A stretch of DNA of 30,106 bases from an uncultured Mesoterricola sp. (GTDB lineage: Bacteria; Acidobacteriota; Holophagae; Holophagales; Holophagaceae): the NCBI GenBank assembly GCA_964479495.1, contig CAYZND010000003.1, positions 1 to 30,106 of the forward strand. Reading direction: 5' to 3'. The notes below the pieces were generated by a model. That model was not told the DNA's origin and made no database searches. It saw nothing but the letters and a program-made list of their open reading frames with translations. Within the stretch, counting starts at the first letter, position 1. Every line of letters starts with the position of its first letter. The translations under genes and the position numbers were made by a program. Positions 1-25,545 of this stretch are shown one piece after another.

Positions 1-2
1 GC

Positions 3-764
3 CCCAACGGCGAGAAGGTGGCCTTCTTCTGCACCAACGACGGCCACACCGAGCCTCTCCTCAAGCGCCTGCTGGAATCGAAGAATGGCCTCTTCGTGGA
101 GGCCGATCTGCCTTCCCCGCTGATGGGCTATCCCGGCGCGCTGGGCCTGGACCTCTCCAAGGAAATGGGGAACTTCCCCGCGATCCTGAAGAAGGTCGAG
201 AGCTCTGTCGTCTCCAAGGGCGGCGCCGGCCGCTTCGGGACCTGGGCCTTCAGCTATGGCTACACCGTGACCGCCGGTCTGGGCGAATATGCCATCCGCG
301 TGGCCGAAGGCAAGGCGCAGAAGAACAGCCTGAAGGATGTGTTCGCCGCCTATGGCAAGTGGACCCCCGGCGCCAAGTGGAACGGCGCGTACTACACCGA
401 TGCGGCCACCAATGTCCGCTACCGGAACATGATCCTGATGTACATGGACACCTACATCCTGGGGGGCCTCAAGGGCAAGCAGTTCCTCCCCACGACGACC
501 CTGAAGGTGCCTGAGAAGTTCTTCAACGCCAAGGCCGCCACCGTGGCCGCTCCGGCCATCGCGGCTCCCGCCGGCGCGAAGACCGCCACCGTGCTGAAGC
601 GCGTCAAGCTGAACGTGCGCAGTGGCCCCGGCACCACCAACAGCATCGTGGGCACCCTGGAACCCGGCACGCCCGTGGTCATCTATTCCACCCAGGGCGA
701 CTGGTGCAAGATCAGCACCACGGAGAACCGCTGGGTCTCCGCTCGCTACCTCGAACAGCAGTAG
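3..764 (+). CDS. DUF3798-family substrate-binding protein (5'-truncated by window edge) with C-terminal Ala/Pro linker and SH3b-like domain
   Basis: Frame is open from base 3 (PNGEKVAFFCTNDGHTEP). It aligns by eye with the C-terminal half of 19390..20610 (TNDxHTEPL, LPSPLxGYPGALG, TPGAKW, DTYIxG). The tail LNVRSGPGT...GTLEPG...GDWCKI...WVSARYL is the bacterial SH3 pattern. Confidence 0.85.
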   Translation, partial: PNGEKVAFFCTNDGHTEPLLKRLLESKNGLFVEADLPSPLMGYPGALGLDLSKEMGNFPAILKKVESSVVSKGGAGRFGTWAFSYGYTVTAGLGEYAIRVAEGKAQKNSLKDVFAAYGKWTPGAKWNGAYYTDAATNVRYRNMILMYMDTYILGGLKGKQFLPTTTLKVPEKFFNAKAATVAAPAIAAPAGAKTATVLKRVKLNVRSGPGTTNSIVGTLEPGTPVVIYSTQGDWCKISTTENRWVSARYLEQQ

Positions 765-774
765 CATCGAGACG

Positions 775-819
775 CACGAACAAAGCCCGGATCGCTGCTG
801 GATCCGGGCTTTGTTCGTG
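775..819. terminator. Probable bidirectional intrinsic terminator between convergent genes
   Basis: Perfect 19-bp inverted repeat CACGAACAAAGCCCGGATC / GATCCGGGCTTTGTTCGTG with a 7-nt loop, lying between the stops at 764 (+) and 823 (-). Confidence 0.85.
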
Positions 820-822
820 TGC

Positions 823-1551
823 TCAAAAGACGGCGTCGGCTCCGCCATCCACGGGGATCACGGTCCCGGTGGTCCAGCGGCTCTCGTCCGAGAGCAGGTG
901 CGCGGCCAAGGCGGCGACCTCTTCGGGACGGCCCAGGCGCTTCATGGGGTTCACGGCCGCAAGCCTGGCTAGGTCGCCCACTGGATCGAGGGCCTTCTTC
1001 AAGCGTTCATCCACCATGGCGGTATGGATGGGTCCCGGGGCGATGGCATTGCAGCGGATCATCCGGGGCGCCCACTCCAGGGCCAGCACCCGGGCCAGCA
1101 TGTGTACGCCGGCCTTGGCGACGCTGTAGGCCGCGGATTCGGGAATCGCCCGGAGCCCGATGTTGGAGCCCACGAGCACGACACTCGAGCCCTCCCGCAG
1201 GCGGGCTCCGAGGTGGTGACACAGGAGCCAGGGACCACGGAGGTTGGACGCGATCATCCGGTCGAAATCCTGGATGGACGTCGATTCGACCGAACCTGTG
1301 ACCAGTTCGCCAGCGCAGAGGAACAGGCCATCCAGGTCGGGGCACTCCAGGGCGAACGTCGCCACCGCGCGGTCATCCCCGTGGTCCAAGGCGAAGGTTC
1401 GGGCCGAGGGGAGCGTTTCCAGCAGCGACTCGCGATGTCGACCCAGCAGGATCGGTTCAGCGCCTAGATCCGAGAAAAGCCGCGCCGCCGCCCGTCCGAG
1501 ACCGCTTCCTGCGCCAGTGACGAGGATGCGTTTCCCGGCGAGGGCGTTCAT
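823..1551 (-). CDS. SDR family NAD(P)-dependent oxidoreductase
   Basis: TGAGSGLG Rossmann motif, YSVAK catalytic motif, NAIAPG. Start trimmed to the ATG at 1551 (MNALAGKRILV), which overlaps the DUF502 stop (ATGA). Confidence 0.92.
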   Translation of the reverse strand: MNALAGKRILVTGAGSGLGRAAARLFSDLGAEPILLGRHRESLLETLPSARTFALDHGDDRAVATFALECPDLDGLFLCAGELVTGSVESTSIQDFDRMIASNLRGPWLLCHHLGARLREGSSVVLVGSNIGLRAIPESAAYSVAKAGVHMLARVLALEWAPRMIRCNAIAPGPIHTAMVDERLKKALDPVGDLARLAAVNPMKRLGRPEEVAALAAHLLSDESRWTTGTVIPVDGGADAVF

Positions 1552-2168
1552 GGTTGCGTCCCGTTTTCCCGGGAAGGAGCCACCACGCCCCCGGAGACGG
1601 CCCAGGTGAAGGCTTCCTCGGGGCGCACGTCCACGGGCTTGATCCGGCCCTGGTCGATCATCACGACATAGCCGGACGTGGGGTTGGGCGCTGTCGGGAT
1701 GTAGACGGCGACCATCTTCTCGCCGCCCTCCATGGCCCAGGCGCAGTCCCGGCGGGCGATGAAGCCCAGGGTGTACGAGCCGGGGTGCGGCCACTCCACG
1801 AGCACGACCTCCTTGAAGCTGCCGCCGCCGCCGCTCTGGATGGCCGTCATCAGACGCTTCGTGGCCCCGTAGATGCCCTTGATCACGGGGATGTTGTCCA
1901 TGATCTCGTCCATCCAGGCCACCAGCTGCTTGCCCAGGAAGTTGCCCATGAGGAAGCCCACCACGAGAACGATCACGGCGGTTCCCAGGGCGGAGGCCAG
2001 GGCGATCTCCCAGTAGACCGGGGGCTTCATCTCCATCTGGAGCGACGCCCAGGTGAGGGGTTCCCGGAAGGCGTCCACCAGGATGGTGAAGATGGCCTTC
2101 ACGATCCAGACCGTCACCACCAAGGGCAGAAGGGTGAAGCAGCCCACGATGAAATACTTGCGGATCAT
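1548..2168 (-). CDS. DUF502 domain membrane protein
   Basis: MIRKYFIVG..LLPLVVT, two hydrophobic helices, IPVIKGIYGATKRL, VVLVEWP, VYIPTAPNPTSGY motifs. Start at 2168 overlaps the pgsA stop (ATGA). Confidence 0.88.
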   Translation of the reverse strand: MIRKYFIVGCFTLLPLVVTVWIVKAIFTILVDAFREPLTWASLQMEMKPPVYWEIALASALGTAVIVLVVGFLMGNFLGKQLVAWMDEIMDNIPVIKGIYGATKRLMTAIQSGGGGSFKEVVLVEWPHPGSYTLGFIARRDCAWAMEGGEKMVAVYIPTAPNPTSGYVVMIDQGRIKPVDVRPEEAFTWAVSGGVVAPSRENGTQP

Positions 2169-2830
2169 TTCTTGTCCAAGGGCTGGGCAGGGGTGTCCTG
2201 GTGGGTGAGCTTTCCCTGCCCGGTGAGGATGCTGAAGCCAAGCTTCTTCCAGAAGGCGCGGAAGTAGGAGATGGCGCTCCAGACGGCCAGGATCATGGCC
2301 GCCCACAGCAGCAGCACGCCCATGCCCACGAAGAAGCTGTAAGGCTTGTTGAGCTGGATGAACAGCTGGAATATGCCCCACTTCGTCCACAGGTACAACC
2401 AGTTGTCGAGCTGGGGCCCTAGGATCAGACAGGAGATCGAGGCGATCTGGGCTCCCATCTTCCACTTGCCCATGGTGTCCGCTGCGATGGTGATGCCCTC
2501 TTCGGAGGCGATGCCCCGGAGTCCGGTGATGGCCATCTCCCGGGCCAGGATGATGAAGACCATCCAGGCGGGAGCCAATCCCAGCTCCACGAGGGAGATC
2601 AAGGCGCCCGAGACCAGGAGCTTGTCGGCCAGAGGGTCCAGCAGCTTGCCCAGGGTCGTCACCTGCTTCCACCGGCGCGCCAGGTAGCCGTCCAGGAGAT
2701 CCGTGATGGAAGCGATCCAGAAGACCACCACCCCGATAATTTCATAGGACTGCACCTTGGTCATGAGGACCACGACCAGGATCGGGACCATCAGGATGCG
2801 CGCGAAGGTCAGATAGGTGGGTAGATTCAT
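2165..2830 (-). CDS. pgsA: CDP-diacylglycerol--glycerol-3-phosphate 3-phosphatidyltransferase
   Basis: MNLPTYLT..RI start; CDP-alcohol phosphotransferase motif DLLDGYLARR..GKLLDPLADK; ILAREMAITGLR; GKWKM. Confidence 0.93.
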   Translation of the reverse strand: MNLPTYLTFARILMVPILVVVLMTKVQSYEIIGVVVFWIASITDLLDGYLARRWKQVTTLGKLLDPLADKLLVSGALISLVELGLAPAWMVFIILAREMAITGLRGIASEEGITIAADTMGKWKMGAQIASISCLILGPQLDNWLYLWTKWGIFQLFIQLNKPYSFFVGMGVLLLWAAMILAVWSAISYFRAFWKKLGFSILTGQGKLTHQDTPAQPLDKK

Positions 2831-17773: not shown

Positions 17774-17806
17774 CACTTTCGTTCCTCGCCTGAGTGAACG
17801 AAAGTG
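17774..17806. promoter_or_regulatory. Inverted repeat upstream of the iadA sigma54 promoter (candidate activator site or hairpin)
   Basis: Perfect 11-bp arms CACTTTCGTTC / GAACGAAAGTG with an 11-nt spacer, ending 59 bp before the -24 box. Confidence 0.45.
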
Positions 17807-17864
17807 GCGCCTGTAGGGGGTTTGGGAGATCCTCCCGGGAAGTCCATCGGGAGGACGAGCCCCC

Positions 17865-17880
17865 TGGCGCCGATCTTGCA
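17865..17880 (+). promoter_or_regulatory. Sigma54 (-24/-12) promoter of iadA
   Basis: TGGCGCCGATCTTGCA has exact GG-N10-GC spacing and TTGCA, 63 nt before the ATG at 17944, directly downstream of a bEBP gene. Confidence 0.85.
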
Positions 17881-17943
17881 TTCCGGTGCGAAAGCCTGGT
17901 GTTGAACGATCGTCGTTTCCGCTGCTGCCAAGGAGTCTTGTTG

Positions 17944-19206
17944 ATGAGTGCCGTTTCCCGCGATGCGTCCATCTTGAAGTTGATCGAAGGACCCGACATC
18001 TATGCTCCGGAATTCCTGGGACCCATGAACGTGCTGGTCGCGGGCGATGTCATTGCGGTGGTTCAACGGGAGCCGATCCGTGTAGGAAACCTGGAGGTGG
18101 AGGTCATCGATGGCCGGGGGAAGTGCCTCGTCCCGGGCTTCATCGACGGCCATGTCCATCTCCTCGGGGGGGGCGGCGAAGGGGGCTACGCCTCACGCAC
18201 GCCGGAGATCATGCTCACGGACATCACCACGGGGGGCGTCACCACGGTGATCGGCTGCCTGGGAACCGACGGCACCACCCGGACCATGGCCAACCTGGTG
18301 GCGAAAGCCCGGGGGCTGGAAGCCGAGGGGATCACCACCCACATCTACACAGGCTCCTACCAGGTTCCCGTTCCGACGGTGACCGGCTCCATCCTGGATG
18401 ACATCGTGCTCATCGACAAGGTTCTTGGCGTGGGCGAGGTGGCCCTGTCCGATCATCGCTCCTCCCAGCCCACGTTCGACGAGTTCGCACGGATCGCTGC
18501 GGCGGCCCGGGTCGGCGGGATGCTCTCCGGAAAAGCCGGTGTGGTCAACGTCCACATGGGCGATGGGGAGCGGCTGCTGTCCATGATCGAGCGGGTCATC
18601 GGTGAAACGGAGATCCCCGCCAAGCACTTCATCCCCACACACATCAACCGGAACAGCCGGCTCTTCGAAGCGGGGATGGCCTATGCCAAGCAGGATGGCG
18701 GGAAGGGTCGCTACATCGATCTGACGACGAGTTCCGTGCCTGACGATCCGAACCGCTCCTGCGGGGCTGCCCTGAAGCGGCTCCTGGAGGCCGGGGTGTC
18801 GATCCACAGCATCAGCTTCAGCTCCGATGGCCAAGGTAGCCTGCCGATCTTCAATGAGGCCAGGGAATACATGGGGTTGGGCGTGGGCAAGGTGTCCACG
18901 CTCTTTGCGGAAGTCAAGAAGGCCATCCGGGTCCATGGCGTGCCATTGGAGGAGGCGATCCGCACGATCACCTCGACACCCGCCACCTATCTTGGCCTCT
19001 CCTCCAAAGGGGCGATCCGTGTGGGCGCCGATGCGGACCTCGTGCTGCTGGATCCCGACTTCGAGATCGATACGGTCCTGGCCCGCGGCCAGGTGATGGT
19101 GCGGGGACACCGGATCCAGCGTTTCGGTACCTTCGAGCGGGACGTGATGAACAACCTCGAGTCCAAGAGAGGATTCATGGAGAGCCGGCAACGGACCTGC
19201 GGTTAA
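17944..19206 (+). CDS. iadA: Isoaspartyl dipeptidase (beta-aspartyl peptidase, amidohydrolase family)
   Basis: PGFIDGHVHLLGGGGEGG..SRTPE, GCLGTDG, GEVALSDHRSSQP, VHMGDG, PTHINR, SSDGQGSLP, GADADL, GTFE. AGGAG RBS. Confidence 0.95.
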   Translation: MSAVSRDASILKLIEGPDIYAPEFLGPMNVLVAGDVIAVVQREPIRVGNLEVEVIDGRGKCLVPGFIDGHVHLLGGGGEGGYASRTPEIMLTDITTGGVTTVIGCLGTDGTTRTMANLVAKARGLEAEGITTHIYTGSYQVPVPTVTGSILDDIVLIDKVLGVGEVALSDHRSSQPTFDEFARIAAAARVGGMLSGKAGVVNVHMGDGERLLSMIERVIGETEIPAKHFIPTHINRNSRLFEAGMAYAKQDGGKGRYIDLTTSSVPDDPNRSCGAALKRLLEAGVSIHSISFSSDGQGSLPIFNEAREYMGLGVGKVSTLFAEVKKAIRVHGVPLEEAIRTITSTPATYLGLSSKGAIRVGADADLVLLDPDFEIDTVLARGQVMVRGHRIQRFGTFERDVMNNLESKRGFMESRQRTCG

Positions 19207-19389: not shown

Positions 19390-20610
19390 ATGATGAGCGT
19401 ACGTAAGGCGATGGCGCGGTTCGCGCTCGCCCTTTGCGTGGCTGCGCCGGGCACCATGGCGATGGCCGCGGCCAAGTACCACGTGGGAATCGTCACCGGC
19501 ACGGTGAGCCAGAGCGAGGATGACCTCCGCGGCGCCGAAGCCATGATCAAGGAATACGGCGACGTGAAGAACGGGGGCATGATCCAGCACCTGACCTACC
19601 CCAACAACTTCATGGCCGAACAGCAGACCACGATCTCCCAGATCGTGTCCCTCGCCAATGACCCGCTGATGAAGGCGATCGTCATGAACCAGGCCGTGCC
19701 GGGCGCCGCCGAAGGCTTCCGCCGCGTGCGCGAGATGCGCCCCGACATCCTCCTGCTGGGCGGCGTGCCCCAGGAAGATCCCCTCGTCGTCGCCAAGACC
19801 GCCGACCTGATCATGCGCAACGACTTCGTGTCCGCGGGCTACCGCGTGATCTGGGCCGCCAAGCAGCTCGGCGCCAAGACCTTCGTGCACATCTCCTTCC
19901 CCCGCCACATGAGCGTGGAGACCCTGACCCGCCGCCGGATGATCTTCGAGCAGGCCTGCAACGACCTGGGCATCAAGTTCGTGTTCGAGACCGCTCCCGA
20001 TCCGACCTCCGATGTGGGCATCGTCGGCGCCCAGCAGTTCATGCTCGAGAACGTGCCCAAGTGGGTGGCCAAGTACGGCAAGGACGCCTGCTTCTACGCC
20101 ACCAACGACGCCCACACCGAGCCCCTCATCCGTCAGGTCGTGGAATACGGCGGCATCTTCGTGGAAGCCAGCCTTCCCTCCCCGCTGCTGGGCTACCCCG
20201 GCGCCCTCGGCATCGACCTCAAGGCCGAGAAGGGCGACTTCCCCGCCATCATGAAGAAGGTTGAAGCGGCCGTGGTCGCCAAGGGCGGCAAGGGTCGGCT
20301 CGGCACCTGGTCCTACTCCTTCGGCTACAGTGCCACCGTGGGCCTCACCCAGCACGCCATGAACGTGGTGGAAGGCAAGTCGAAGATGACCAACATGAAG
20401 GACATCTTCAAGGCCTTCGCCAAGTACACCCCCGGCGCCAAGTGGGGCGGCTCCTACTACGTGGACGCCTCCACCGGCGTGAAGCTGGAGAACTTCGTGC
20501 TGCTGCTCCAGGACACCTACATCTTCGGCAAGGGCTACATCAAGTCCGCCGAGGTCAAGGTGCCCGAGAAGTACCTCAAGATCTCTTCCGGCCTCAAGAA
20601 GAAGCCGTAA
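19390..20610 (+). CDS. DUF3798-family periplasmic substrate-binding protein
   Basis: Signal peptide; YHVGIVTGTVSQSEDDLRGAE, TYPNNFMAE, HISFPRH, APDPTSDVG..GAQQF, TNDAHTEPL. AGGAGG RBS; first gene of an ABC operon. Confidence 0.88.
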   Translation: MMSVRKAMARFALALCVAAPGTMAMAAAKYHVGIVTGTVSQSEDDLRGAEAMIKEYGDVKNGGMIQHLTYPNNFMAEQQTTISQIVSLANDPLMKAIVMNQAVPGAAEGFRRVREMRPDILLLGGVPQEDPLVVAKTADLIMRNDFVSAGYRVIWAAKQLGAKTFVHISFPRHMSVETLTRRRMIFEQACNDLGIKFVFETAPDPTSDVGIVGAQQFMLENVPKWVAKYGKDACFYATNDAHTEPLIRQVVEYGGIFVEASLPSPLLGYPGALGIDLKAEKGDFPAIMKKVEAAVVAKGGKGRLGTWSYSFGYSATVGLTQHAMNVVEGKSKMTNMKDIFKAFAKYTPGAKWGGSYYVDASTGVKLENFVLLLQDTYIFGKGYIKSAEVKVPEKYLKISSGLKKKP

Positions 20611-20695: not shown

Positions 20696-22312
20696 ATGGA
20701 AGCGGTACCGATCCTCAGTTTGCGGAACATCGGAAAGGCCTTCTACGAGAACCGGGTCCTGGCGGATGTCTCCTTCGACGTGGCGCCCGGCGAGATCATC
20801 GGTCTCGTGGGAGAGAACGGGGCGGGCAAGTCCACCCTCATGAAGATCCTCTTCGGCATGCCCGTGATCCGGGAGACCGGCGGATTCGAGGGCAGCATCC
20901 TGATCGATGGGAAGGAAGTGGACTTCCGCACGCCCTTCGATGCGCTGGATGCGGGCATCGGCATGGTCCACCAGGAGTTCTCCCTCATCCCCGGCTTCAC
21001 GACGACGGAGAACATCCTCCTCAACCGCGAGTCCTTCCAGAACTCCATCCTCATCGACATCTTCGGCCCCCGCATCAGCGCCCTGGACCGCATGACCATG
21101 GAGAGCCGCTCCAAGAAGGCCATCGACAAGCTGGGCGTCACCCTCGACCCCAACATGCTCATCAAGGAGATGCCCGTCGGACACAAGCAGTTCACGGAGA
21201 TCGCGCGGGAGCTCGGGCGCGAGAACGTGAAGCTGATCGTGCTGGACGAACCCACGGCCGTGCTCACGGAAAGCGAGGCGGAAACCCTGCTCGCCTCCCT
21301 GCGCATCCTCTCGGCGGAAGGCATCGCCATCATCTTCATCTCCCACCGGCTCCGCGAGGTCGTGGAGCTGTGTCACCGCGTGGTGGTGCTGCGGGACGGC
21401 CACCTCGTCAAGGACTACCCGGCCAAGGGGACCACCACCAAGGAGATCGCCTCCCTCATGGTGGGCCGCAGGATGGAGAGTGCCGCCGAGGAGACTCACC
21501 GCAAGGACATCGGCAGCGGATCCGTCCTGACCGTCGAGAAGCTCTGGGTCGACATGCCCGGTGAGCGGGTCCGGAGCGTGGACCTGGACATCAAGCAGGG
21601 CGAGATCTTCGGGATCGGCGGCCTGGCGGGGCAGGGGAAGCTCGGCATTCCCAACGGCCTCATGGGGCTCTACCCGGCTGGCGGCACCGTGACCCTGCAC
21701 GGGCAGCCGGTCCCCCTGAACGCTCCCCGCGCGGTGCTGGAGCGCAAGATGGCCTTCGTGTCCGAGGACCGGCGCGGGGTCGGCCTGCTCCTGGACGAGG
21801 GCATCGACTGGAACATCGCCTTCACCGCCATGCAGGTGCAGGACAAGTATGTGAAGCCCATCCTGGGCGGCCTGTTCCTGTGGCGGTCCGACTCCGCCAT
21901 GGTGGACCTGGCGAAGGAGTACATCGACCTCCTGGAGATCAAGTGCACCGGTCCGGGCCAGCGGGCGGGAACCGTCTCCGGGGGCAACCAGCAGAAGGTG
22001 TGCCTGGCCAAGGCCTTCGCCCTGCGTCCGGACCTGCTGTTCGTGTCCGAGCCCACCCGGGGCATCGACATCGGCGCCAAGCACCTGGTGCTCGACACCC
22101 TCCGGAAGTACAACCGCGAGTATGGAACGACCATCGTGATGATCTCCAGTGAGCTGGAGGAGCTGCGCTCCATCTGCGACCGGATCGGCATCGTCTACGA
22201 AGGCCGCATCGAAGGGATCCTCCCGAGCACGGCTCCCATCGAGGAATTCGGCATCCTGATGGCTGGCGCGGACAAGGATGTAGCACCGGCTGTGGCCGGC
22301 GGAGGGAACTGA
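20696..22312 (+). CDS. ABC transporter ATP-binding protein, tandem-domain sugar (RbsA/MglA-like) type
   Basis: GENGAGKS, VHQE, LDEPT, ISHRL in domain 1; VSEDRR, SGGNQQKV, EPTRGIDIGAK, ISSELEEL in domain 2. Confidence 0.93.
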   Translation: MEAVPILSLRNIGKAFYENRVLADVSFDVAPGEIIGLVGENGAGKSTLMKILFGMPVIRETGGFEGSILIDGKEVDFRTPFDALDAGIGMVHQEFSLIPGFTTTENILLNRESFQNSILIDIFGPRISALDRMTMESRSKKAIDKLGVTLDPNMLIKEMPVGHKQFTEIARELGRENVKLIVLDEPTAVLTESEAETLLASLRILSAEGIAIIFISHRLREVVELCHRVVVLRDGHLVKDYPAKGTTTKEIASLMVGRRMESAAEETHRKDIGSGSVLTVEKLWVDMPGERVRSVDLDIKQGEIFGIGGLAGQGKLGIPNGLMGLYPAGGTVTLHGQPVPLNAPRAVLERKMAFVSEDRRGVGLLLDEGIDWNIAFTAMQVQDKYVKPILGGLFLWRSDSAMVDLAKEYIDLLEIKCTGPGQRAGTVSGGNQQKVCLAKAFALRPDLLFVSEPTRGIDIGAKHLVLDTLRKYNREYGTTIVMISSELEELRSICDRIGIVYEGRIEGILPSTAPIEEFGILMAGADKDVAPAVAGGGN

Positions 22313-22314
22313 AC

Positions 22315-23355
22315 ATGGAAGGCCTCAAGCGTTTCATCGCCGACTTCGGTCTGCCGCGGCTCATCATCGCCGTATTCCTCTTCCTGCTGTTCGCCGTCGC
22401 CCCCTTCGTGGGAGTGAGCCTTCCGGCCGCCATCTCCGACACGCTGATCCGCGTCGGCATGAACGGCATCATGGTCCTGGCCATGATCCCCATGATCCAG
22501 TCGGGCTGCGGCCTGAACTTCGGTCTCTCCCTGGGAGTCATCGCAGGCCTCCTGGGTTCCACCATCAGCATCGAGATGGGACTGGTGGGCCTCCTGGGAT
22601 TCCTGATGGCCGTGCTGCTCTCGCAGGGGTTTGGGGCGGCCTTCGGTTTCGGCTATGGCAAGCTGCTCAACCGCGTCAAGGGCGGCGAGATGATGATCGC
22701 CACCTACGTGGGCTTCTCCTCCGTGATGATCATGTCCATCGCCTGGCTGGTGCTGCCCTACAAGAGCCCCACCATGATCTGGGGGTTCGCGGGCACGGGG
22801 CTGCGGACCACCATCTCCGTGGAGGGCTTCTGGCGGCACATCCTGGATGACTTCCTGGCCATCCAGATCGCGGACTTCAAGTTCCCCACGGGCGCGATCC
22901 TGGTGTTCCTGCTGGTGGCGCTGGCCGTCTGGGCCTTCTTCCATCTGAAGCTGGGCACCGCGGTCACGGCGGTGGGCTCCAACCCGATCTACGCCAAGGC
23001 CTCGGGCATCAGCGTCAACAAGATGCGCATCGTCAGCGTCATGATGTCCACCATGCTCGGCGCCCTCGGGATCGTCGTCTTCCAGCAGAGCTTCGGCTTC
23101 ATCCAGCTCTACGACGGTCCCCTCTACATGGCCTTCCCGGCAGTTGCGGCGATCCTCATCGGCGGCGCCTCGGTGAACAAGGCGACGCTGACGCACGTCT
23201 TCCTCGGCACGCTGCTCTACCAGGGCATCCTCACCATGACCCCGTCCATCTTCAACGCCGTCATGAAGGTGGACATGTCGGACGTCATCCGGATCATCGT
23301 CTCCAACGGCATGATCCTCTACGCGCTGACCCGCAAGACGAAGGTGGCGAAATGA
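22315..23355 (+). CDS. ABC transporter permease (BPD_transp_2-like)
   Basis: Multiple TM helices, GLNFGLSLG, KLGTAVTAVGSN..A.ASGI, PAVAAILIGG. Confidence 0.9.
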   Translation: MEGLKRFIADFGLPRLIIAVFLFLLFAVAPFVGVSLPAAISDTLIRVGMNGIMVLAMIPMIQSGCGLNFGLSLGVIAGLLGSTISIEMGLVGLLGFLMAVLLSQGFGAAFGFGYGKLLNRVKGGEMMIATYVGFSSVMIMSIAWLVLPYKSPTMIWGFAGTGLRTTISVEGFWRHILDDFLAIQIADFKFPTGAILVFLLVALAVWAFFHLKLGTAVTAVGSNPIYAKASGISVNKMRIVSVMMSTMLGALGIVVFQQSFGFIQLYDGPLYMAFPAVAAILIGGASVNKATLTHVFLGTLLYQGILTMTPSIFNAVMKVDMSDVIRIIVSNGMILYALTRKTKVAK

Positions 23356-24488
23356 ATTCCAAGCTCCGGCTCTTCCTCATCGAGAACGCGGTCGTCATTC
23401 TCTTCATCATCCTCATCGCCTTCGCCATCCCCGTTTCCGAGCTCCCGGCAGGCTTCCTGCTGCAGGAGATCCTGATGCGGATCGGTCCCAATGCCTTCCT
23501 GGTGATCGCACTCCTGCTCCCGATCATGGCGGGCATGGGCCTGAACTTCGGCATGGTGCTTGGGGCCATGGCAGGCCAGATCGGACTCATCTTCATCACG
23601 GACTGGGGCATCGTGGGCATCCCCGGTGTGCTGCTCGCCATGATCATCTCGCTGCCCATCTCGGTCTTCCTGGGCTGGGTCTGCGGTTCGATCATGAACC
23701 TAGCCAAGGGTCGCGAGATGGTGACGGGCTTCATCCTGGCCTTCTTCATGAACGGCATCTACATGATCGTCGTCCTCTACGCCATGGGCAGCATCATCCC
23801 CATCCTGAACCCGGAATTGCTGCTGTCCCGCGGCTACGGCATCCGCAACGTGGTGGGCCTGGATGGCGTGCGGCAGTCCCTGGACAACCTCATCCCCCTG
23901 AAGTTCAACCTGTCCTTCCTCACGCCTCCGTTCGTCAAGGTGCCCATCTTCTGCTTCGTCATCGTGGCCCTGGTCTGCCTGTTCATCGTCTGGTTCCGCA
24001 AGACCAAGCTGGGCCAGGACATGCGGGCCGTGGGACAGGATCGGGCCGTGGCGGACGCCGCCGGCATTCCCGTCGAACGCACGCGCATCCTGGCGATCAT
24101 CATCTCCACCGCCCTCGCTGGCATCGGGCAGGTGATCTTCCTGCAGACCATGGGAACCATCAATACGACCGCCTCCCACGAGCAGATCGGCATGTTCTCC
24201 ATCGCCGCGCTGCTGATCGGCGGCGCCTCCGTGACGCGCGCCTCCATCCCCAATGTGCTCATCGGCGTCATCCTGTTCCACCTGCTGTTCCTGGTCTCGC
24301 CCATGGCCGGCAAGAACCTGGTGGGGTCCGCCCAGCTGGGCGAGTTCTTCCGCCAGTCCGTGAGCTACGGCGTCATCGCCGTGGCCCTGGTGCTCTACGA
24401 GTGGAAGCGGCAGACCCAGGAGCATGAGTCCCGCGCGGACCTGCGTGGCGAAACCGAACCGGCCAAGAAGGCGGGAGGTGCCGCATGA
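23352..24488 (+). CDS. ABC transporter permease (second subunit)
   Basis: Multiple TM helices, GLNFGMVLG, TKLGQDMRAVGQD..A.AAGI, FSIAALLIGG. ATGA overlap with the previous gene. Confidence 0.9.
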   Translation: MNSKLRLFLIENAVVILFIILIAFAIPVSELPAGFLLQEILMRIGPNAFLVIALLLPIMAGMGLNFGMVLGAMAGQIGLIFITDWGIVGIPGVLLAMIISLPISVFLGWVCGSIMNLAKGREMVTGFILAFFMNGIYMIVVLYAMGSIIPILNPELLLSRGYGIRNVVGLDGVRQSLDNLIPLKFNLSFLTPPFVKVPIFCFVIVALVCLFIVWFRKTKLGQDMRAVGQDRAVADAAGIPVERTRILAIIISTALAGIGQVIFLQTMGTINTTASHEQIGMFSIAALLIGGASVTRASIPNVLIGVILFHLLFLVSPMAGKNLVGSAQLGEFFRQSVSYGVIAVALVLYEWKRQTQEHESRADLRGETEPAKKAGGAA

Positions 24489-24988
24489 CCCGGCGCAGCC
24501 TCATCCAGCGCAGCGCGGTGTTGCTCGGCCTGATGGGCCTGGCGGTCTTCCTGTTCTACATCGGCAAGGGGCATACCCTCCTGCTGGACACCAACGCCAT
24601 CACCATCAACGGCCAGGAGATCTCCTCCGCCGATAACGTCGAGGTGAGCGTCGACGGGCAGGAGCCCAAGTCCATGGGGCGCGCCGAGCGCACCATGGTC
24701 TCCGTGGGCGGACCCAGCCACACCATCCAGATCGAGGTGATCGACGGGGATGGCCGCAAGGTGGAAGCGAAGTTCACCGTTCCGACCTTCATGGACATGG
24801 CGGTGGTCTCCATCCCGGCGATTCTCGAGAAGGCGCCGCGGGAGCACTGGGTGACCAAGTTCACGCCTCCTCCACCGGAGGAAGCCGCTGCGGAGCAGAT
24901 GGAGATGCAGGACGACACGCCGGTGGCACCCGCGCCGGGGATGGAGCTCAAGCCCACCCCCGAAGCGCCAGCCCCAAAGGCTCCCTGA
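24485..24988 (+). CDS. Membrane-anchored accessory protein of the ABC operon (recalled as DUF6672-like)
   Basis: ATGA-coupled to the permease. One TM helix, then GKGHTLLLD.., a beta-rich domain and a Pro/Glu-rich tail. Family name from memory and unverified. Confidence 0.75.
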   Translation: MTRRSLIQRSAVLLGLMGLAVFLFYIGKGHTLLLDTNAITINGQEISSADNVEVSVDGQEPKSMGRAERTMVSVGGPSHTIQIEVIDGDGRKVEAKFTVPTFMDMAVVSIPAILEKAPREHWVTKFTPPPPEEAAAEQMEMQDDTPVAPAPGMELKPTPEAPAPKAP

Positions 24989-25053: not shown

Positions 25054-25545
25054 ATGGATTCCACCCTTCAGCCCCTCACCGAGGCGCATCGGCAGGCAGT
25101 CATCGACATCTACAACCATCATGTTGATCACGGCTTCGCCAGCTACCGTGAAGTCCGGTTGCCCTACGAAGCCTTCGATCGGTTCCTGGCCATCGCCAAG
25201 GGGTATCCGGCCTACGTGAATGTGCGGTCCGACGGCGAAGTGGACGGCTTCGGATTCCTCCATGCCTGGCATCCATCCGAGTGCTTCCAGCGCACCGCCG
25301 AGATCACCTATTTCTTCCACCCTGGCGCCACCCGCCAGGGCTCGGGCTCGCGCCTGCTGGCACGGCTGCTGGAGGAGGCTGCGGTCCTGAAGGTCGATCG
25401 CATCCTTGCCAGCATCTCGTCACGGAATCCCGAGAGCATCGCCTTCCACCGCAAGCACGACTTCGTGGAGTGCGGCCGCTTCCCCCAGGTGGGCCACAAA
25501 CACGGCGTGGACTTCGACGTGGTGTGGATGGTCAGGCATCTGTGA
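25054..25545 (+). CDS. GNAT N-acetyltransferase (phosphinothricin/YncA-like)
   Basis: IDIYNHHV..FASYRE, TAEITYF, RQGSGSRLL, NPESIAFHRKHDF..CGRF..VGHKHG..DVVWM. Confidence 0.88.
   Translation: MDSTLQPLTEAHRQAVIDIYNHHVDHGFASYREVRLPYEAFDRFLAIAKGYPAYVNVRSDGEVDGFGFLHAWHPSECFQRTAEITYFFHPGATRQGSGSRLLARLLEEAAVLKVDRILASISSRNPESIAFHRKHDFVECGRFPQVGHKHGVDFDVVWMVRHL

Follow-up and report, generated by a model that had tools for sequence, protein, structure and literature searches.

The window analysed here, a stretch of 30,106 nucleotides, is contig C3, read from its first base, of a metagenome-assembled genome (G000; 475 contigs, 96.7% complete, 3.5% contaminated) of a soil or sediment Acidobacteriota of the family Holophagaceae. 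Its first open reading frame (3..764, plus strand, frame +3) is open at the contig start and closes with a TAG stop at 762-764. Pfam matched residues 3-79 of the 253-residue fragment to DUF3798 (E 1.7e-24, 87.2 bits against a cut-off of 24.6, profile positions 196-271) and residues 203-251 to SH3_3 (PF08239; E 1.5e-13, 51.1 bits against a cut-off of 27, profile positions 3-54 of 54). SH3_4 likewise scored above its own Pfam cut-off on this fragment. By BLASTP, the fragment aligned with the DUF3798 paralogue encoded at 19390..20610 of the window (53% identity over 172 residues, E 9e-70), and the alignment stops at '...KVPEKF/Y', exactly where an Ala/Pro stretch begins. The original prediction had described this gene as the C-terminal half of a homologue of that paralogue, continuing past the paralogue's end through an Ala/Pro linker into an SH3b-like domain, and all three parts of this description were borne out by the Pfam scores and by the end point of the BLASTP alignment. 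The linker measures about 17-25 residues and its composition is kept in five orthologues. The features are collected in Table 1.

Table 1. Features of the fusion gene, its downstream neighbourhood and the distant DUF3798 cassette (window coordinates)
Feature	Position	Strand	Evidence or remark
DUF3798 / type I periplasmic binding protein, C-terminal 175 residues, fusion gene	3..527	+	Pfam, paralogue identity, contig overlap
Ala/Pro-rich flexible linker, 17 residues (aa 176-192), AKAATVAAPAIAAPAGA	528..578	+	Read from sequence
C-terminal SH3b (SH3_3) domain	579..761	+	Pfam match nt 609-755, AF2, Foldseek, dN/dS
24-bp stem-loop, probable (bidirectional) terminator	769..824		Folding, conservation
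Convergent short-chain dehydrogenase (SDR) gene	823..1551	-	Conserved downstream neighbourhood, outside system
DUF502 gene	1548..2168	-	Downstream neighbourhood
pgsA-like gene	2165..2830	-	Downstream neighbourhood
DUF3798 SBP of distant cassette	19390..20610	+	Pfam, 417 bits
Double ABC ATPase	20696..22312	+	Pfam; 69% identical to C285 ATPase
BPD_transp_2 permease 1	22315..23355	+	Pfam
BPD_transp_2 permease 2	23352..24488	+	Pfam
DUF6672	24485..24988	+	Pfam

The whole gene and its neighbourhood

Contig C3 begins at base 1 of the window, so that the truncation of the gene is a product of assembly and does not exist in the organism. A second contig, C148, ends in a DUF3798 gene of which it covers the first 256 codons, and C148:7439..8178 encodes the N-terminal 229 residues together with the signal peptide and overlaps window positions 1-55. 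This N-terminal half scored 341.7 bits against DUF3798 (profile positions 1-210). The last 55 nucleotides of C148 (L007 8124-8178) match the first 55 of C3 exactly, and the identical 55-mer also forms the first 55 nucleotides of reverse-complemented contig C285 (L008 4814-4868). The shared 55-mer is a three-way fork in a k=55 de Bruijn graph, produced by a local identity between two DUF3798 paralogues. On a 30.5-kb contig from an independent ENA assembly (L023) the gene is uninterrupted (P0003, 482 aa); it agrees with the joined C148+C3 sequence at 99.4% identity, and the match spans the junction. The gene order of L023 matches C148 followed by C3 and runs two-subunit FAD oxidoreductase, pseudouridine synthase (-), proC (-), fusion gene (+), SDR (-), DUF502 (-) and pgsA (-); the core of this order is also found on a 182-kb JGI contig (L022). 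C148 is therefore joined to the C3 branch of the fork on the strength of the independent L023 contig. The N-terminal half of the C285 sister gene was not found in the MAG bin. The DUF3798-SH3b fusion is real, and the whole protein of 482 residues consists of a signal peptide, DUF3798, the linker and SH3b.

The fusion gene is monocistronic. In G000, L022 and L023 it is flanked by divergent proC and rluB-like genes and by convergent SDR, DUF502 and pgsA genes, and no cognate permease or ATPase gene lies beside it in any of the three. On L022 and L023, no ABC genes were found within about 7 kb upstream or 10 kb downstream. This agrees with the earlier claim that no permease follows the gene, the next genes being the convergent SDR, DUF502 and pgsA. 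A complete transporter operon of its own was also looked for upstream and is absent, C148 and L023 showing proC and the pseudouridine synthase on the opposite strand. No riboswitch or known RNA was matched upstream of the gene in C148 and L023 at the Rfam gathering thresholds.

The hairpin at 769-824 has a folding energy of -45.7 kcal/mol (z -9.65) and occurs once in the genome. A hairpin at the same site, with compensatory changes in the stem, was found at four other loci, the one in G001 having a T8 tail. A consensus terminator scanner made no call at the window hairpin because the U-tract is absent there. The hairpin is probably a terminator common to the convergent fusion and SDR genes. 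Folding of the 24-bp stem and the conserved hairpin at this site support the strong terminator that had been noticed after the gene, though here it comes without a U-tract.

Further upstream on C148 (2193-5557), a two-subunit FAD/Fe-S oxidoreductase is encoded by genes for a 735-aa Fer2_4/Pyr_redox_2/Fer2_BFD protein and a 385-aa DAO protein, a pair that resembles opine oxidase or archaeal-type proline dehydrogenase pairs. It adjoins proC (C148 6270-7088, minus strand), and this order is kept in L022 and L023 and not in G002.

Export, fold and domain relatives

The N-terminus encoded on C148, MRTLTKVAATLVPAAMFLTGTNALA followed by QAKFHVG, was read by eye as a Sec-type signal peptide with a basic n-region, a hydrophobic core and a cleavage site between A-L-A and Q. 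No lipobox cysteine was found in the signal cleavage region of the fusion protein, and no hydrophobic or transmembrane segment follows the signal peptide. From these features, the product is predicted to be a secreted, soluble periplasmic protein.

To describe the fold, the AF2 model of an orthologue (P0001, 82% identical) was used. The model (mean pLDDT 84) comprises a confident two-lobe alpha/beta domain, a linker with a pLDDT of about 50 and a separate SH3 barrel (74-85). Modelled alone, the SH3b tail forms a small beta-barrel of 7-8 short strands (pLDDT 78-89). Foldseek matched the binding-protein part of the model to 3QI7 (E 1e-24, TMt 0.87), which is also the only solved relative by sequence (E 1e-26); the next structural matches were CUT2 sugar binders, LsrB and LivJ-type proteins. 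For the tail, the top Foldseek matches were the SH3b structures 2kt8, 9ovi and 2krs, the NlpC/P60 structure 6biq and the endolysin structure 4krt, with TMq values of 0.57-0.65 and a probability of 1.00 but modest E-values of 1e-3 to 1e-1. The best of these neighbours (E 1e-3 to 3e-2) belong to surface proteins of Clostridium perfringens and Bacillus anthracis, to NlpC/P60 enzymes and to the Psm endolysin.

The N-terminal 400 residues of the fusion correspond to a full-length member of DUF3798 (PF12683), the family of 3QI7, a 'putative transcriptional regulator' of Clostridium difficile. About 95 columns were invariant in an alignment of 27 sequences, and the family-invariant residues are all retained in the eight fusion proteins. 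The usual context of the family, a substrate-binding protein (SBP) gene followed by genes for an ATPase, two permeases and DUF6672, occurs twice in this genome. Compared with ordinary members, the fusion protein has no cassette of its own and adds a C-terminal linker and SH3b domain. The tail belongs to the same Pfam family and has the same fold as the SH3b domains of NlpC/P60 enzymes and endolysins (PMC4600125; 6BIQ, 4KRT, 2KT8, 2KRS). Those domains are attached to a wall-cutting enzyme; the partner of this one is a transport receptor, the host is a diderm, and wall binding is putative. What is new here is the addition of an SH3b module to an orphan ABC receptor; both parts are of known kinds.

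Distribution and origin of the fusion

The fusion was found in four of four species genomes of one Holophagaceae genus, the orthologues in the three other species being 81-82% identical; one of these congeneric genomes, G002, is labelled 'Holophaga sp.'. No match to the fusion query (E <= 0.001) was found in 57 further genomes, covering 28 other genera of the family and class. Among the best 120 matches from 5.8 billion clusters, DUF3798 and SH3_3 occur together in five (29 members, unnamed or 'hypothetical'), and the other 115 are proteins of 305-434 aa, mostly 400-411, with no SH3. An SH3 tail is likewise present in 3 of 80 genome loci, the other 77 ending at about 400-410 aa. Longer tblastn matches that run past residue 406 (L028, L045, L058, L062, L066, L047 and L094) were rejected as candidates, being ordinary ends or frameshifted tails with no SH3. 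HMMER gave no other DUF3798+SH3 protein in the best 150 of 1.84 billion 50%-identity representatives; the SH3 matches in that listing were the giant multi-SH3 proteins P0252 and P0261. The architecture was also found in no Atlas cluster of at least 50 members. A literature search found no description of DUF3798+SH3 or SBP+SH3b fusions, and the papers found to mention DUF3798 included none on its function. The fusion had been put forward as one not known to have been described, and its rarity holds in the literature, among large clusters and in its restriction to one genus. The fusion is confined to a single Holophagaceae genus.

Some DUF3798 tails in other Holophagaceae MAGs (L028, L043 and L031) are frameshifted or aberrant, for example '...KIPAKSLRHQEAV' against '...KYYAIKKQ', and are probably sequencing or assembly errors and not extensions. 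The DUF3798 family itself is widespread, with members in spirochaetes (including Treponema), Fusobacteria, Synergistota and Firmicutes. The closest relatives outside Holophagaceae are spirochaete proteins (Rectinema, Treponema; 70-77% identity, loci L032-L102); this identity is unusually high across phyla, which suggests horizontal transfer of the cassette.

The second paralogue at the assembly fork identifies a probable parent of the fusion gene. Contig C285 holds the C-terminal half of this paralogue, which is 88% identical in nucleotides and 89% in amino acids to the shared half of the fusion, ends normally at '...KVPEKYLNMKKQ' before its stop codon and has no SH3b. It heads a five-gene ABC cassette encoding the SBP, an ATPase, two permeases and DUF6672. 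A tree built on the C-terminal half common to both places the genus's fusion and operon paralogues in a single clade (100/98), nested inside the operon SBPs of other Holophagaceae. In the full SBP tree, seven of the eight fusion proteins cluster with one another (85/94), and an AU test did not reject the monophyly of the full set of eight (p-AU 0.51). The fusion gene thus appears, from its sequence and position in the trees, to be a recent duplicate of the C285-type operon SBP, and the simplest account would be a single duplication-plus-fusion in the ancestor of the genus. The SBP gene of a DUF3798 ABC cassette would have been duplicated in that ancestor, and the copy would have gained the SH3b tail and moved to its own locus between proC and the SDR/DUF502/pgsA operon.

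The binding domain has hardly diverged from that of its sister. Of the 379 positions of the mature SBP, just one, directly next to the linker, separates the eight fusion sequences from 11 non-fusion sequences, and fusion-to-sister identity (83.8%) is about the same as identity within groups (85%). With a single separating position, the ligand and the docking surface are probably unchanged. Across five orthologues (dS 0.5-1.4), dN/dS came to 0.06-0.17 (SBP half), 0.09-0.40 (linker) and 0.14-0.46 (SH3b). All three parts are thus under purifying selection, which marks the tail as a maintained functional domain rather than read-through junk.

The two copies in G003 (JANYIU01; L025 and L026) differ patchily, third-codon-position identity ranging from 0.3 to 0.9 in 20-codon windows, while residues 121-280 of the fusion and operon paralogues are 98% identical. 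This pattern suggests repeated, patchy gene conversion between the unlinked copies, and such conversion would account as well for the common 55-mer at which the assembly broke.

As for the source of the tail, the other SH3_3 genes of the genome (on C122 and C119) encode small secreted proteins with an N-terminal SH3 and were set aside, having no particular similarity to the fusion tail. A search of 5.8 billion clusters with the tail only returned the fusion family and one weak match, and nothing else.

Permease partner and possible role

The original prediction held that the receptor may share the permease and ATPase encoded 19 kb away. The C285 sister SBP is, however, 89% identical to the fusion, compared with 53% for the SBP of the window cassette, and from these identities the C285 sister cassette appears the likelier permease partner. 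The proposed sharing is thus weakened by the closer sister, but G002 keeps the window cassette in contention. In that genome (93% complete) the fusion is kept under purifying selection, the sister SBP and sister permease were not found (best matches 62-63%), and on a single contig the fusion lies 17 kb from its nearest linked cassette, which is orthologous to that of the window. Since the fusion was found in G002 without its sister, the sister cassette may be dispensable as a partner, or the function may be something other than transport.

Both cassettes of the genome end in a gene for the small membrane-anchored protein DUF6672 (window 24485-24988; L008 1-387, minus strand; 130.6 and 97.5 bits), which looks, by this shared arrangement, like a conserved fifth component of the DUF3798 transporter type. 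The window cassette is preceded by an Amidohydro_1 amidohydrolase gene (17794-19206) and followed by a GNAT acetyltransferase gene (25054-25545), both possible clues to its substrate class.

Duplicated binding proteins that share one permease are familiar from Enterobacteria, in which HisJ and ArgT share HisQMP2 and LivJ and LivK share LivHMGF. As in these systems, the fusion is a duplicated SBP (84-89% identical to the operon SBP) encoded apart from permease genes. Unlike them, with their differing ligand ranges and no extra domain, it has an undifferentiated binding domain to which an SH3b has been added.

The best explanation of the whole is that the protein is a periplasmic orphan receptor which binds the same ligand as its sister, works with a permease in trans and is localised on the envelope by its SH3b domain; we consider the chances of this reading to be about even. 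The SBP of the fusion would most likely bind the sister's small ligand and deliver it in trans to a DUF3798-type ABC permease, preferably that of the C285 cassette. The role of the SH3b domain would be localisation: with the linker as a flexible leash, it would fix the receptor to a structure of the envelope, peptidoglycan being the most plausible one. An anchored receptor could keep captured ligand near the membrane, instead of diffusing freely. By analogy, peptidoglycan would be the default target of an SH3b domain. The more specific version, in which the leash holds the receptor non-covalently on peptidoglycan and the sacculus serves as a capture surface feeding a permease elsewhere, is offered tentatively and is somewhat doubtful. 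A peptidoglycan-bound receptor must reach the inner membrane, and by our estimate the linker, at about 6-8 nm, plus the domain would be only roughly adequate. SH3b domains also mediate protein-protein and intramolecular or interdomain contacts (PMC4600125), which makes a protein tether, such as DUF6672 or a sensor, a live alternative to the wall.

Some receptors of ABC transporters are already known to be tethered, either as the lipoprotein SBPs of monoderms and spirochaetes or as SBP-permease fusions of the GlnPQ and OpuA types, whereas the SBPs of Gram-negative bacteria are textbook free-diffusing periplasmic proteins. The logic proposed for the fusion, a receptor kept near the membrane or envelope rather than diffusing, is that of the tethered ABC receptors. 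The means would differ, since the fusion has no lipobox cysteine and no transmembrane segment and would depend on a putative non-covalent SH3b tether on a flexible linker. If true, this would be a third way to immobilise SBPs, besides lipid anchors and permease fusion. An SBP with a wall-binding-type domain maintained by selection would show that receptor positioning in the periplasm is tunable. The near-identical sister without a tail provides a natural matched control within the genus, and setting it against the fusion could offer an entry point to the uncharacterised DUF3798 transporter family. Any effect is likely to be modest, and only one uncultured genus has the fusion.

Binding proteins can also report to membrane sensors, as LuxP, ChvE, TorT and MBP-Tar do. 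The fusion could in this way be a signalling co-receptor, an orphan SBP that reports its ligand to a histidine kinase, chemoreceptor or cyclase, with the SH3b docking the partner. Its monocistronic gene, unlinked to any permease, would fit this role, as would the capacity of SH3b domains for protein contacts and the retention of the fusion in G002, where no sister cassette was detected. In L022 the second gene upstream of the fusion encodes a small Cache-domain protein, and in P0154 DUF3798 is fused to a GerE HTH, which makes the module regulatory elsewhere. However, no sensor gene conservedly adjoins the fusion, the Cache gene being absent from L023 and C148, and an SBP with no fixed difference from its transporter-linked sister suggests that the permease-docking surface is still constrained. 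We regard a signalling role as unlikely, although it deserves more weight than the alternatives that follow.

The wall itself could be the source of the ligand, the option that the original prediction named second, after tethering. The SH3b domain of a scavenger would recognise peptidoglycan stem peptides or glycan while the SBP binds a compound derived from the wall or trapped in it. In structure the tail comes closest to the wall-binding SH3b domains of NlpC/P60 enzymes and endolysins, which points in this direction, and the SH3b of recycling NlpC/P60 enzymes takes part in stem-peptide recognition (PMC4600125). Nothing, however, ties the DUF3798 cassettes here to murein recycling, their neighbours being the amidohydrolase, GNAT and DUF6672 genes. 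The identical sister SBP works without an SH3b, and the long disordered linker speaks against a composite binding site. Scavenging of this kind is consequently quite improbable. An artefact or a decaying gene, whether an assembly chimera at the fork or neutral read-through into a remnant SH3 gene without function, could draw on the position of window base 1 at a three-way fork, where the end of C148 fits both the start of C3 and the end of C285, and on the fragmentation and contamination of the MAG, but is scarcely credible given the unbroken gene in the 30.5-kb contig and in the 182-kb JGI contig, the fusion in the genomes of each of the other three species and the purifying selection on the tail; the independent contiguous assemblies and the congeneric genomes rule out a chimera outright.

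The preferred reading, an orphan receptor held on the envelope, has parallels elsewhere in the DUF3798 family. In Treponema primitia, a homologue carries a signal of lipoprotein type whose last residue is cysteine. P0141 carries an N-terminal Cu_amine_oxidN1 domain, P0144 and P0163 carry N-terminal BspA-type LRRs, and the GerE/LuxR HTH of P0154 is C-terminal. In these four proteins, as in the fusion, DUF3798 is joined to a surface-association or effector domain, but they come from other lineages and their partner domains are different ones, mostly N-terminal and none of them SH3b. The surface or wall modules and the lipoprotein signals suggest that several lineages tether the DUF3798 receptor in different ways, which would fit a repeated need to position it. 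Tandem double-SBP DUF3798 proteins of 800-1000 aa were also observed, among P0135, P0138 and P0140.
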